Shown here piece by piece: positions 9,398 to 13,285 of a stretch of DNA of 41,590 bases. Made by a program: the position numbers and the translations under genes. Positions within the stretch are counted from its first letter, which is position 1. Each line of letters starts with the position of its first letter. The notes under the pieces are model-generated. The model was given only the letters and a program-made list of their open reading frames with translations, had not been told where the DNA came from and did not search any database. Source of the stretch: a virus (taxonomy: Duplodnaviria > Heunggongvirae > Uroviricota > Caudoviricetes); the IMG/VR virus record IMGVR_UViG_2585427774_000008; one strand, 5' to 3'.

Positions 9398-9481
9398 CGG
9401 GTTCAAATATGGCGAAAGCCGCGGTGCTCGAACACCAACGGCTTTCAGGTGCAAAAACTGAGCGTAATTGCGGAGAACAGT

Positions 9482-10390
9482 ATGTCAAATACCGCTGAAA
9501 TAATCAATTTCCCAAATAAAACCGAACAACCGGGAGGTCGTATGGCCGACCTGTCGAACGGGTATACCAAGGTCGCTAACGAGATCCAACAGCTTAAGCC
9601 TCGCCTGAGACTGTCAGGCCGGGAATGGCAATGTTTTGAGGCGGTGATCTGGCTTACCTACGGCTGGAACAAGAAACAGGACCGCGTGACAAATACGGTT
9701 ATTGCCGAGCTTACGGGCCTGAGCGATACGCATGTATCGGACGCGCTTAAGTCTCTCGCAGAACGCAAAATCATCTTTTCACAGAAGCAGGGCATGATGA
9801 AAATCGTCGGTGTAAACACTGACCTTTCAGCATGGATTTTAGACAAACCGGAAACGGGAAGAAAATTCCCGAAAACGGGAAAATCCTTCCCGAAATCAGG
9901 AATAACCTTCCCGAAAACGGTAGACACCCAATACAAGAACAAGAACAGTATTAAAAGATCTTCGTCCGAGAATTCTGACGAATCCTCTGACGCACGTCTG
10001 AAGAAATTTTTATCAACTCATCCTGAAGCTGCGGTCTACACACCATCCGGTGCGAAGTGGGGCTCTGCTGAAGACCTCGAGACAGCTAAGTGGATTTCCT
10101 CCAGGGTGAAGCTGATTAACCCAACCTGCAAAGCCCCGGACATGACCTCCTGGTCTAACACTGTTCGCCTGATGCGCCAGATAGACGACCGGTCGCACCA
10201 GGACATCTGCGCGCTGTATGACTGGGCTAGCAAACACCACTTCTGGCAGACCAACATCCTGAGTCCCGAAAGCCTGCGTAAGCAGTGGGACAAGCTGACA
10301 ATGCAGCGTAACGCCGGAGGTGAGCAGCGCGCTGTCAAGCCAGATCTGGACTTCAACAACACTGACTGGGCCTATGGGGTGATCCGATGA
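9482..10390 (+). CDS. Replication initiation protein, lambda O-like
   Basis: 302 aa from ATG at 9482 with GGAGA SD; N-terminal replisome-organiser-like region (LSGREWQCFEAVIWLTYGW...AELTGLSDTHVSDALKSL); contains iterons. Confidence 0.8.
   Translation: MSNTAEIINFPNKTEQPGGRMADLSNGYTKVANEIQQLKPRLRLSGREWQCFEAVIWLTYGWNKKQDRVTNTVIAELTGLSDTHVSDALKSLAERKIIFSQKQGMMKIVGVNTDLSAWILDKPETGRKFPKTGKSFPKSGITFPKTVDTQYKNKNSIKRSSSENSDESSDARLKKFLSTHPEAAVYTPSGAKWGSAEDLETAKWISSRVKLINPTCKAPDMTSWSNTVRLMRQIDDRSHQDICALYDWASKHHFWQTNILSPESLRKQWDKLTMQRNAGGEQRAVKPDLDFNNTDWAYGVIR
9846..9923 (+). repeat. Iterons (candidate replication origin) inside O-like gene
   Basis: Four direct repeats of (t/a)cccgaaa(a/t)c(g/a)gg starting at 9846, 9867, 9888, 9909 with exact 21-bp spacing, followed by A-rich tract; encodes FPKTG/FPKSG peptide repeats. 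Confidence 0.65.
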
Positions 10391-11076
10391 AATCTCTTGC
10401 AGAGCAGATGCGTAACCACGACCGCGAGCAGATGAGCCGCATGGCCCATAACCTGCCAGAGCAGTACCAGGAGTGCGCGCTGGTCGAGCAGGTGGCGCAG
10501 GTATTCAACAAGCTGTTCAACGAGCTGCGCGCCGCGTTCCCGGCCAGCATGGCGAACTTTCGCACCCAGGAAGACCTGAACGAATTCCGCCGTCAGTGGC
10601 TGCTGGCGTTTCAGGAGAACGGGATCCACACCATGGCTCAGGTCGATGCCGGCATGCGCATTGCCCGCCGCCAGGAGCGCCCATTCCTGCCGTCGCCGGG
10701 CCAGTTCGTAGCCTGGTGCAAGCAGAGCGGCGGCGCGCTGGGCGTCAACGTTGACCAGGTGATCGCCGAATACTGGGACTGGCGTAACCGCTCGTTCGAA
10801 TTCATCTCCAGCGAGCAATTTCCATGGTCGCAGCCGGTCATGTACCACATTTGCGTAGAATTGCGCCACCGCAGCACCGAGCGCCAGTTAACGCATGGTG
10901 AACTGGCACGCGAGGCAGGCGATCTGCTGGACATGTGGGAAAGGCGCGTCACCGAGGGTAAGCCAGTGCCGCCGGTACGCCGGGCTATTGCCGCACCAGC
11001 TGCCGAGCAAGGGCCGACGCCGATCCAGCTGCTGCTGGCCAAGTACAACCGCAACAAGTCGAACGGGATGGTGTGA
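10387..11076 (+). CDS. P: Replication protein P (DnaB helicase loader), lambda P-like
   Basis: 229-aa ORF; closely resembles lambda P as recalled (FDREQM...MPEQY...RPFLPSPGQFVAWC). Confidence 0.9.
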   Translation: MKSLAEQMRNHDREQMSRMAHNLPEQYQECALVEQVAQVFNKLFNELRAAFPASMANFRTQEDLNEFRRQWLLAFQENGIHTMAQVDAGMRIARRQERPFLPSPGQFVAWCKQSGGALGVNVDQVIAEYWDWRNRSFEFISSEQFPWSQPVMYHICVELRHRSTERQLTHGELAREAGDLLDMWERRVTEGKPVPPVRRAIAAPAAEQGPTPIQLLLAKYNRNKSNGMV

Positions 11077-11138
11077 CATGAACATAACAATCCGTGAGCA
11101 GGTGCTGGCAGCCCTGCGCAACAACCCAGGGTTGAACA

Positions 11139-11318
11139 ATGCCAAACTGGCAGGGCTTCCCGGAGTGGTACATCATCGATCAGGACTATCGGGGGCAGAA
11201 GTACGCGAAGGACAAGCAGGTTGCGCGTTGTGGCAACGCAGTTCCGCCGCCATTCGCCGAGGCACTGGTGAGGGCTAATTTACCGGAGCTTTGTCAGCAG
11301 AAAGAGATCGCAGCTTAA
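11139..11318 (+). pseudogene. C-terminal remnant of a C5-cytosine DNA methyltransferase
   Basis: 59-codon ORF ending ...QGFPEWYII...ARCGNAVPPPFAEALVRANLPELCQQKEIAA; GNAVPP is the motif X signature; no upstream catalytic motifs present. Confidence 0.5.
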
Positions 11319-11906
11319 TGTCCGAGTTTCAGAACATGGTGTAACAAATCCTGCTACTTCAATGACGTAGATTCAAACCTGATATAATTAGGCTCTTCAC
11401 AACACGAGGAGCCTAAAATGCACCATTACATGATCCCTATCAACGGAACTGTTCACCTGATCAAGACTGACTCTCTAATCCCTGAAGGGACTGAGTATAG
11501 CTTTGAAGGAGAAAGTCTAATCTGCGCTCATGCCACTTTTAAATCTGGGACGTATGGCTTCCTGATACCAAAGGGAAATCAGTTGAATAGAGAGCATGCG
11601 TTCTGGCATGTAAGTGGAATTCACCCTAATCCCCTGGGAATGGATAAATCGTAATCCATAATATGCATGCCATCGTCCTGAACATACGGTGGCATGCATC
11701 CGGCACTACAACAGAAACGTTAAAGTGCAAACAATACAATTCGAGCAATATTCAACCTGTCACAGATGGCGAATACCACCGCCATTTCGTGCATTCTGTG
11801 GTTTCTATTACCCATTGCGTTAATGCTGTCCAATCATCAGCTCGCTGAGGCGCTGGTTAGGGCTAACCTACAGGAGCTTTGTCAGCAGAAACAAATAGCG
11901 GCGTAA
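11255..11906 (+). repeat. Diverged direct repeat pair (about 64 bp, about 83 percent identity) flanking an inserted segment
   Basis: 11255-11318 and 11843-11906 both encode AEALVRANL(P/Q)ELCQQK(E/Q)IAA-stop; 11 mismatches counted by eye. Confidence 0.6.
11418..11654 (+). CDS. Hypothetical moron protein
   Basis: 78-aa ORF with AGGAG SD and upstream AT-rich promoter-like sequence (gatataatt); lies between the repeat pair. Confidence 0.4.
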   Translation: MHHYMIPINGTVHLIKTDSLIPEGTEYSFEGESLICAHATFKSGTYGFLIPKGNQLNREHAFWHVSGIHPNPLGMDKS

Positions 11907-11924
11907 TAAAACATCGCTAATTCA

Positions 11925-11952
11925 ACCCGCTACGGCGGGGTTTTTTTTTTTT
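11925..11952 (+). terminator. Rho-independent terminator
   Basis: cccgc-tacg-gcggg hairpin followed by 12 T. Confidence 0.7.
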
Positions 11953-12013
11953 CTACTGACAGAAAATTAACAATTTGTGCTCTTAAAGCGTTGATCATTT
12001 CCGCGCATAGGTA

Positions 12014-12033
12014 TACTGTATAAAAACACAGTA
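12014..12033 (+). promoter_or_regulatory. LexA (SOS) box overlapping promoter of dinI-like gene
   Basis: TACTGTATAAAAACACAGTA matches CTGT-N8-ACAG consensus; overlaps a TATACT -10 candidate about 20 nt upstream of the gene. Confidence 0.7.
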
Positions 12034-12051
12034 AATGCAATGGGGGCCATT

Positions 12052-12285
12052 ATGAAAGTTGAATTAACCATTGATCGCATGAAAGAACTTCCTAAAGGCG
12101 CAGTACCAGCACTGGAGAAAGAACTGCTTAAGCGCCTGAATGATCACTATGACAATTGCAGGCTCACAATCCGCCGTGCCGGGGCCGATGGGTTAAGTGT
12201 TTTTGGTGGTGACAAGGACGATAAAAAGAAAATTGAATCAATCCTCCAGGATACCTGGGAAAGCGCTGACGACTGGTTTTATTAG
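12052..12285 (+). CDS. dinI: DinI-family protein
   Basis: 77 aa from ATG at 12052; MKVELTIDRMKELPKGA...ILQDTWESADDWF closely resembles E. coli DinI as recalled. Confidence 0.85.
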   Translation: MKVELTIDRMKELPKGAVPALEKELLKRLNDHYDNCRLTIRRAGADGLSVFGGDKDDKKKIESILQDTWESADDWFY

Positions 12286-12402
12286 AATTGCGCTTAAGGC
12301 TGGCGCGCATTTTTCAGAATACCGCAATTTGCGTAACCCTCTGATGCTGCTGCCGACAATCTTTAATCGCGTCTGTTAGTCGCTCGAAGGGAGAACATAA
12401 AT

Positions 12403-12651
12403 GTGAGTGATTCAGCTTTGCAAACGTCAGAAGACAACTGGTATGACATTGTAAGAAGGTCTGACGGCTGCGTGGTGTTTAGCTTTCCTTCATCGGGCAG
12501 GCATCTAATTTATCGCGTCAATGGCATGGTTTCTATGCGGCCTTTGCTGGATGATGAAGAGGTCTTTACTCCTAATGGTTTTATGCAGTTTATTCACCGT
12601 CTCGGCTACCGGGTAACCCCACCTTCTGATAATATGAAATCAACGGTCTGA
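12403..12651 (+). CDS. Hypothetical protein
   Basis: 82-aa ORF from GTG with AGGGAG SD. Confidence 0.4.
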   Translation: MSDSALQTSEDNWYDIVRRSDGCVVFSFPSSGRHLIYRVNGMVSMRPLLDDEEVFTPNGFMQFIHRLGYRVTPPSDNMKSTV

Positions 12652-12685
12652 ACAACCGTAACCTACTGCGCCACGGAGAGAAACC

Positions 12686-13285
12686 ATGGCGCACGAACTA
12701 CAACTCATCAAGCATTCCTCAGGAATCCTGATCCCCGCTACGCCGGAGACCAGTGATTTACTGCAATCAAAAATCAAACTCGGCTCCGTACTGGTGGCTG
12801 AGTTCCGGCAGGTACGCAACCCGGCCTTTCACCGTCGTTTCTTCGCGTTACTCAATCTCGGTTTCGAATACTGGGAACCCACCGGCGGGGCAATCTCCTC
12901 CAACGAACGCAAGCTGGTAACCGGCTATGCCAAGTTCCTTGCCTCATTCGCGGGAAGTGAAGCAGCACTCCTGGATGCTGCTGAGCAATATCTGGACCGC
13001 ATCGCCGATAAGCGTACTGGTAGCATCTGCGCCTGTAAGTCATTCGATGCATATCGTGCATGGGTCACTATTGAGTCCGGCCATTACGACGCCATTCAGC
13101 TGCCTGACGGCACCCTCCGCAAACATCCCCGCAGTATCTCATTCGCAAATATGGATGAAACTGAGTTCCAGCAGCTGTACAAAGCCGCGCTCGATGTTCT
13201 GTGGCGATGGATACTCTCCCGATCATTTCGCAGTTGTGAAGAGGCAGAAAACGCCGCCGCCCAGCTGATGAGCTTTGCGGGGTGA
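12686..13285 (+). CDS. Hypothetical nin-region protein
   Basis: 199-aa ORF with AGAGA SD-like sequence; typical position between replication genes and rusA. Confidence 0.55.
   Translation: MAHELQLIKHSSGILIPATPETSDLLQSKIKLGSVLVAEFRQVRNPAFHRRFFALLNLGFEYWEPTGGAISSNERKLVTGYAKFLASFAGSEAALLDAAEQYLDRIADKRTGSICACKSFDAYRAWVTIESGHYDAIQLPDGTLRKHPRSISFANMDETEFQQLYKAALDVLWRWILSRSFRSCEEAENAAAQLMSFAG

Follow-up and report, generated by a model that had tools for sequence, protein, structure and literature searches.

In the stretch of viral DNA analysed here (the window, 41,590 nucleotides), the early-right (nin) region of a phi80/mEp237-like lambdoid E. coli prophage contains a mosaic junction in decay. 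A gene for a large phage C5-cytosine methyltransferase (MT) has very probably been eroded there by small deletions, its two diverged tails now surrounding a moron, ORF78, with a predicted promoter of its own. In the record, the genes O (9449-10390) and P (10387-11076) are followed by the remnants and the ORF78 cassette, and then by a DinI-like gene, an 82-aa ORF, NinB (12686-13285) and RusA. Over positions 11000-12100, identity was 99.4% with phage mEp237 and 99.5-99.6% with some 30 complete E. coli chromosomes. The remnants, repeats, ORFs, promoter, hairpin and terminator between 11078 and 11951 all lie on the + strand.

The locus corresponds to gp43-gp48 of mEp237 (NC_019704 / JQ182730), with 99% identical DNA. 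Both sequences carry P, a C-terminal MT fragment, a stretch annotated as a promoter, gp47 (ORF78 in the window), a second copy of the MT end, a terminator and a DinI-like gene. They differ in that mEp237 keeps a full ren gene, a 65-aa ORF and 134 MT codons, whereas the window lacks these 718 bp. The relevant literature on mEp237 that a search returned, among results that were mostly unrelated, does not discuss this locus.

The MT 3' remnant occupies positions 11151-11318 and consists of the last 55 codons and the stop. The translation of 11151-11315, QGFPEWYIIDQDYRGQKYAKDKQVARCGNAVPPPFAEALVRANLPELCQQKEIAA, includes QGFPEWY...CGNAVPPPF, that is, the C-terminal motifs IX (QGFP) and X (GNAVPP). 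By tblastn it was 91% identical in amino acids to residues 661-715, the very end, of the 715-aa methylase of Klebsiella phage 5 LV-2017. It also matched positions 345-399 of the 400 of phrog_23072 (E = 7e-23), and positions 286-320 of the 324 of the PF00145 profile at 17.4 bits, below the gathering threshold of 22 bits. The earlier note had recognised this C-terminal remnant by its GNAVPP motif, and its extent is now set at 55 codons. The remnant thus shares its two motifs with the large phage C5-MTs of these families (715 aa in the Klebsiella phage, 662 aa in E. coli H6), but lacks their motifs I-VIII and their target-recognition region: motif I (FxGxG, the AdoMet site), motif IV (PC, with the catalytic Cys), motif VI (ENV) and motif VIII are all missing along with the N-terminal catalytic half. 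An intact reading frame with a start and a ribosome-binding site (RBS) is absent as well, as the ren ATG reads the MT tail out of frame and the in-frame ATG at 11139 derives from ren. Because the remnant has no in-frame start from ren, no MT enzyme can be made.

The MT tail had been described in the earlier note as standing alone directly downstream of P. Instead, it is preceded by the first ~24-27 codons of ren (11078-11158), a winged-helix, Ren-like gene which, as far as the junction, shares 99% identity with mEp237 ren. Full-length mEp237 ren encodes 114 aa and matches phrog_142 and HTH_24; of a Ren-like exclusion protein (phrog_142, a full winged-helix protein of ~100-115 aa) the window retains these first codons only. 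Comparison with mEp237 by blastn yielded two blocks that overlap by 9 nt at 11150-11158, and the junction was read by three-way comparison of the window with the left and right sides in mEp237. The overlapping 9-mer, GCAGGGCTT, occurs once in mEp237 ren and once in mEp237 MT. Since the two blocks share a 9-mer that is present in both genes, the junction corresponds to a 718-bp deletion between 9-bp direct repeats. As read from these alignments, the deletion places the last 55 MT codons behind ren codon ~25, in a different frame.

The chimeric 66-aa ORF across this junction (11078-11278) has the start of ren and continues into the MT tail in the wrong frame. RefSeq annotates it in many E. coli genomes as hypothetical protein WP_001299077.1, and we judge it to be a by-product of the deletion. 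The ATG at 11139, from which a '59-aa ORF' can be read, sits in ren-derived sequence in another frame, and mEp237 has ACG at this place.

The end of the MT gene is present twice. Copy 1 of the direct repeat (11254-11319) comprises the last 21 MT codons, the stop and one further base, and copy 2 (11842-11907) is, together with the terminator, LexA box and dinI behind it, collinear with the native MT end and what follows it in Klebsiella phage 5 LV-2017. The two copies match at 55 of 66 positions (83%) at a spacing of 588 nt; among 200 shuffles of the 1.2-kb region, the top-scoring 66-mer reached 33 matches on average and 37 at most. This agrees closely with the 64 bp recurring about 590 bp downstream at about 83% identity that had been noticed before. 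Downstream of copy 2 lies an intrinsic terminator (11926-11951; stem 11926-11939, CCCGC-TACG-GCGGG, then a T12 run). The same arrangement is found 3' of the intact MT in the Klebsiella phage, which makes it the native terminator downstream of the MT gene.

The repeats have recombined with each other in at least one relative. Strain AR_0119 has the 718-bp junction and lacks the 588-bp cassette; its single MT tail is followed directly by the terminator and dinI. This tail is an exact chimera, with copy 1 until GGAGCTTTGTCAGCAGAAA and copy 2 thereafter, the crossover falling in a shared core of 19 identical nt. The repeats thus do recombine, and in doing so can remove the moron. Judging from the chimeric tail, the loss of the cassette in AR_0119 is a crossover between copy 1 and copy 2; in principle, AR_0119 could be a recombinant of different prophages and not a direct descendant.

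A locus from the Logan assembly SRR12183882 (L010) carries the whole unit of copy 1, cassette and copy 2 at 82% identity. Orthologous copies are 77% identical and paralogous ones 65-83%, the two copies within L010 being 65% identical. The presence of the whole unit at 82% identity, together with orthologous copies that are closer than paralogous ones, indicates that the duplication is old. Copy 1 of L010 is a pseudogene, because it contains an in-frame TAG and its GNAVPP motif has become VNAVPP. Between lineages, homology ends exactly at the end of copy 2 (L010, L032, L033 and L035) or near the end of copy 1 (L034), so that the MT tails coincide with mosaic boundaries. A transposon-like insertion with target duplication was also considered as the source of the repeats and rejected, as the repeat is at least 66 nt long and 17% diverged, copy 2 extends upstream as a decayed MT tail, and the L010 orthologous copies are closer to those of the window than paralogous copies are to each other.

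This extension of copy 2 forms a second, decayed MT 3' remnant of ~53 codons (11745-11906, the start being approximate), with a frameshift caused by one additional A at 11839. Identity to copy 1 is as high as 83% over the final 66 nt alone and is ~39% over the ~96 nt before them, a contrast that may reflect repeated crossovers with intact MT alleles. The extra A is absent from the relative L028, where the in-frame reading is ...TDGEYHRHFVHSVVSITHCVNAVQSSLAEALV... and the frame is given as SNIQPVTDGEYHRHFVHSVVSITHCVNAVQSSLAEALVRANLQELCQQKQIAA. There, the 31 residues before the copy 2 tail align without gaps to MT FPDWYIIDQDYRGKKYAKDKQVARCGNAVPP, with a BLOSUM62 score of 10 against -33 +/- 11 in shuffles (P = 3.5e-4) and a DNA identity of 36/93 (P = 0.0015). 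Because this gap-free alignment to MT lies upstream of the 66 nt, copy 2 represents the end of a second MT allele, ~53 codons long and strongly decayed.

Inside this decayed tail lies a 46-codon ORF with a hydrophobic N-terminus (11766-11906). The earlier note had listed it as one of two small cargo genes; the ORF does exist and does end in copy 2, but it is an unconserved, alternative-frame reading of the decayed MT tail. Its ATG at 11766 arises from gATGg inside the 'TDGEY' codons of the decayed tail, codons 1-24 read the tail out of frame, and the return to the MT frame is due solely to the 1-nt insertion at 11839. In relatives that lack this insertion the ORF ends differently, with either ...SNHRSLRRW or ...RSLRRWLGLTYRSFVSRNK, each followed by a stop.

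A rival reading is that the ORF encodes a real small membrane peptide, such as a toxin, a lysis or an exclusion factor, and the stretch N(T/I)TAISCIL(W/L)FLLPIALM is indeed open in 10/10 variants examined, with an ATG before it in eight of these ten. Yet the conserved start, RBS and frame of a small membrane peptide or type I toxin were not found: the ORF has no Shine-Dalgarno sequence, the ATG is replaced by ATT in L034 and removed in L010 by a 55-nt deletion, and the frame after codon 24 varies among relatives, the C-terminal half taking three unrelated forms because of the 1-nt indel. Moreover, substitutions are equally frequent in the ORF frame and in the MT frame, the DNA can be shown to be a decayed MT tail in the wrong frame, and neither PGAP nor the mEp237 authors called a gene here. 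We consider a real peptide very improbable, judge that the ORF is not a gene, and recommend that it should not be annotated.

The cassette between the two tails is of a different nature. Its predicted promoter (11362-11388) consists of ATGACG (11362-11367), a 15-nt spacer and a perfect extended -10, TGaTATAAT (11380-11388). This gives a precise location to the AT-rich, promoter-like sequence previously noticed between the copies, and the mEp237 record annotates it as a promoter. A generic consensus scan missed it because such a scan demands a spacer of 16-18 nt. The promoter 27-mer is unique in the window and is kept in every ORF78 allele group compared except L044, which has a different extended -10. 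It is followed by a conserved Shine-Dalgarno sequence, GAGGAG (11407-11412), 5 nt before the ORF78 ATG, and both elements are kept even at ~40% protein identity and where the upstream DNA is unrelated.

The 27-mer thus hardly varies even where synonymous sites in the coding regions of the cassettes are saturated, and window-type and L043/L045-type cassettes also have much of the 5' leader (11362-11417) in common, the equivalents in L008 and L038-L045 having been compared. Either a recent exchange of the 5' end or a constraint beyond that of a plain promoter, for instance a regulator site, may account for this near-invariance.

ORF78 itself (11418-11654; mEp237 gp47, phrog_30079) encodes a small conserved protein of 78 aa, so that the ORF indicated between the copies by the earlier note holds up as a conserved gene. 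Homologues at 39-43% amino acid identity keep M1, Y4, P7, L14, K16, P22, G24, G31, C36, H38, Y46, G47, L49, G53 and P70-N-P-L73. Between alleles, pS is 0.83-0.86 (saturated) and pN 0.37-0.39; pN being well below pS, ORF78 is under purifying selection.

The family is tiny. A word-indexed protein search returned two near-identical clusters only, and an exhaustive phmmer search added, beyond near-identical copies, P0004 and P0005 as the only credible relatives; a further match, P0003 (142 aa), shows 97% identity to ORF78 across residues 19-78 of the latter. The long, repetitive phmmer matches P0006-P0010 were dismissed as spurious. Sequence searches of Pfam, NCBIfam, PADLOC and PDB gave no match to ORF78, and an alignment-based profile search of genome contigs gave no confirmed locus. 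An AF2 model (pLDDT 80.5) predicts five beta-strands and a C-terminal helix, and this modelled fold had no significant neighbour.

Directly 3' of ORF78 lies a hairpin with a 14-bp stem and no U-tract (11663-11699; -21.8 kcal/mol, z -3.5), possibly a 3' stabiliser or a weak terminator. It was also considered as a covarying RNA element and rejected, since relatives mostly keep it, partly eroded, and show no compensatory change. An Rfam scan of 10900-12800 at E <= 1 gave a chance-level match only (anti-hemB, E 0.87). In the L008-type allele a canonical terminator follows ORF78 immediately, whereas the window allele has this U-less hairpin and meets a strong terminator only at 11926-11951. The strong terminator that had been placed after ORF78 is therefore real, but it stands after copy 2.

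Morons are defined by their own promoter, a differing GC content and a sporadic distribution, a concept from HK97 and HK022 (Cumby et al., 2012, PMC3594210). GC content is 0.59-0.66 upstream and 0.42-0.45 in the cassette, with a drop from 0.59 to 0.42 at 11320. The cassette is absent from AR_0119 and from Klebsiella phage 5 LV-2017, where the MT stop is followed by the terminator, a LexA box and dinI with no ORF78 in between, while L043 and L045 carry promoter and cassette beside xis/int with no MT nearby. With its own predicted promoter, its distinct GC content, its presence or absence in close relatives and its occurrence in more than one context, the cassette fits the moron definition as far as sequence features can tell. 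It departs from the lambdoid morons of that study in two respects: the window allele lacks a canonical terminator immediately 3', and in most lineages the cassette is a fixed neighbour of MT and not a sporadic insert. Transcription of ORF78 would start at the cassette's own promoter and would probably occur in the repressed prophage as well, and the extended -10, the strong RBS and the conserved protein suggest that the cassette is probably still functional.

The earlier note had taken related prophages with a full methyltransferase at this position as a check on its reading, and such prophages are present. A tblastn search with the Klebsiella MT gave full-length coverage ending ~100 nt before ORF78 in several IMG/VR loci. 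The MT is intact in L026 and L037, with a 100% identical ORF78 and the same dinI; in L028, L029 and L035, with ORF78 96-99% identical; in L039, L040 and L042, with ORF78 42-43% identical and then a pol III theta homologue; and in the ENA locus L044, with a 75-aa ORF78 homologue that is 40% identical. Copy 2 occurs together with an intact MT and the same ORF78 cassette in L026, L037, L028, L029 and L035, and in L026 the MT is an uninterrupted ORF of 652 codons at 943-2901.

The prophage of E. coli H6 has the order ren, 65-aa ORF, ea22-like, HNH, DUF4014, two hypotheticals, MT, ORF78, theta and NinB, with a PGAP-annotated 662-aa MT that likewise ends about 100 nt before ORF78, here in a diverged version. 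Among complete E. coli genomes an intact MT is rare (~4 of 5426), and remnant forms are commoner. The intact MTs are unusually long, at 652-715 aa (at 1722-3869 in L009, the Klebsiella phage, and 2076-4064 in L046, besides L026), and contain, between motifs VIII and IX, an insert of ~350 aa in which a P..T(V/I)TAGG-like module recurs 4-5 times, which recalls the several target-recognition domains found in multispecific phage C5-methyltransferases.

Because relatives have an intact MT along with the cassette and copy 2, both the cassette and the duplication predate the loss of MT. By parsimony, the ancestral state, which is kept in relatives, would have been a large phage C5-cytosine MT followed by the terminator and an SOS-controlled dinI. 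An older recombination of two MT-bearing phages would then have linked 'MT - ORF78 cassette' to the terminal ~53 codons of another MT allele, giving MT - ORF78 - 'MT tail - terminator - dinI. The simplest origin of copy 2 would be an old illegitimate join between the DNA 3' of ORF78, from an 'MT - ORF78' phage, and a point ~53 codons from the MT end, in an 'MT - terminator - dinI' phage.

MT would subsequently have been destroyed from its 5' side by two microhomology-mediated deletions, at 13 bp (the mEp237 stage) and then at 9 bp. When mEp237 is compared with E. coli H6 on the left and with L026 on the right, its first ~21 ea22 codons are joined to MT at a 13-nt microhomology, GGCGGGTGGGCTG. 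The second deletion would have removed the 718 bp at GCAGGGCTT, and AR_0119 would later have lost the 588-bp cassette through copy 1 and copy 2. Both MT tails would now be non-coding relics that still serve as homologous recombination substrates, for deletion of the cassette and for swapping of flanking modules.

The earlier note saw in the locus the scar of a modular recombination, weighed here as a single event, that brought in small cargo genes and thereby replaced MT. Much of its description stands, namely the MT remnant, the repeats as MT 3' ends, and the promoter-bearing, low-GC small gene between them; the repeats do bracket such an insert, and some phages have MT, terminator and dinI without it. 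The replacement itself does not stand: the identical cassette and copy 2 lie beside an intact MT in the five relatives named above, and MT was truncated instead through the two microhomology deletions, at separate upstream junctions (13 bp and 9 bp) that are unrelated to the cassette boundaries. We therefore give this explanation very little credence.

A function of the MT-tail repeats, either as a recombination 'linker' for nin-region modules or as an RNA element (a 3'-UTR-derived sRNA or a sequence acting upstream of the terminator), would explain why at least ~66 nt survive (~49 nt recognisable in L034) in many independently truncated prophages. At least five truncation points leave ~50-170 nt (copy 1 and copy 2 of the window, L005/L008, L007 and L034), mosaic breakpoints coincide with the tail ends, and copy 2 with the terminator folds with z = -3.0. 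Against this, no Rfam family was found above chance, and substitutions accumulate in the tails, including a stop in L032. Copy 1 precedes the moron and not a terminator, which rules out an sRNA function common to both copies. The survival of the tails is to be expected anyway, since selection would act against deletions that reach the terminator or the promoter of dinI, and any shared sequence is enough for homologous exchange. A functional role for the tails thus appears unlikely, and erosion of MT by small deletions, with its tails persisting as relics, is the reading that we retain.

The module downstream of the tails and the slot upstream of them vary among relatives. In the window, a perfect LexA box, TACTGTATAAAAACACAGTA, at 12014-12033 lies just 5' of a DinI-family gene (12052-12285; PF06183, E = 4e-26), an SOS-controlled accessory gene directly after the terminator, and Klebsiella phage 5 LV-2017 has an equal arrangement of LexA box and dinI (box at ~3979-3998 of L009). 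The 82-aa ORF between dinI and ninB (12403-12651) matches phrog_340 (E = 4e-20) and is kept in all dinI-type relatives. In L008 (3494-3751), L010 (4747-5172) and L039-L042, a homologue of DNA polymerase III theta (HolE-like) takes the place of dinI 3' of ORF78. The prophage of E. coli ECCWS199 (L007, 2350-2441) has, between ren and the MT tail, a number of small ORFs together with a tRNA-Ile annotated on the other strand, and illustrates how changeable the cargo of this slot is.

Early-right transcription from pR would pass through P and the ren' chimera, and transcripts would stop at the ORF78 hairpin and/or at the strong, tR2-like terminator unless antiterminated. LexA would control dinI, and the terminator and the LexA-boxed dinI are probably still functional.

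Module boundaries in lambdoid mosaics, as in comparisons of HK97, HK022 and HK620, are marked by short shared sequences at gene ends that are sites of exchange. The MT tails resemble them in that homology between lineages starts or ends exactly at the tail and a crossover in the 19-nt core is documented. They differ in that the shared sequence is here a relic of a coding sequence and not a dedicated intergenic linker. The feature as a whole is of a known kind, a gene remnant and a moron at a lambdoid mosaic boundary, and is largely annotated already in the mEp237 record.

Four successive states are found in public genomes, namely the intact MT, the 13-bp deletion, the 9-bp deletion and the repeat-mediated loss of the moron, and the series provides a clean worked example of how prophage accessory regions erode and reshuffle. 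For annotation, its value is that WP_001299077.1 can be recognised as a deletion chimera and that the 46-codon ORF is to stay unannotated. In each of three diverged allele groups, ORF78 and its highly conserved predicted promoter follow the MT gene, the ORF lying ~100 nt beyond the MT stop. On the basis of this conserved adjacency and of purifying selection, one may speculate that it is a functional partner of the large phage C5-MT and not a random moron, an idea to which we attach a low probability. Such a partner may shield C5-methylated phage DNA from methylation-dependent restriction of the McrBC/McrA/Mrr type, or alternatively may modulate the MT and have been kept for a second role after MT loss.
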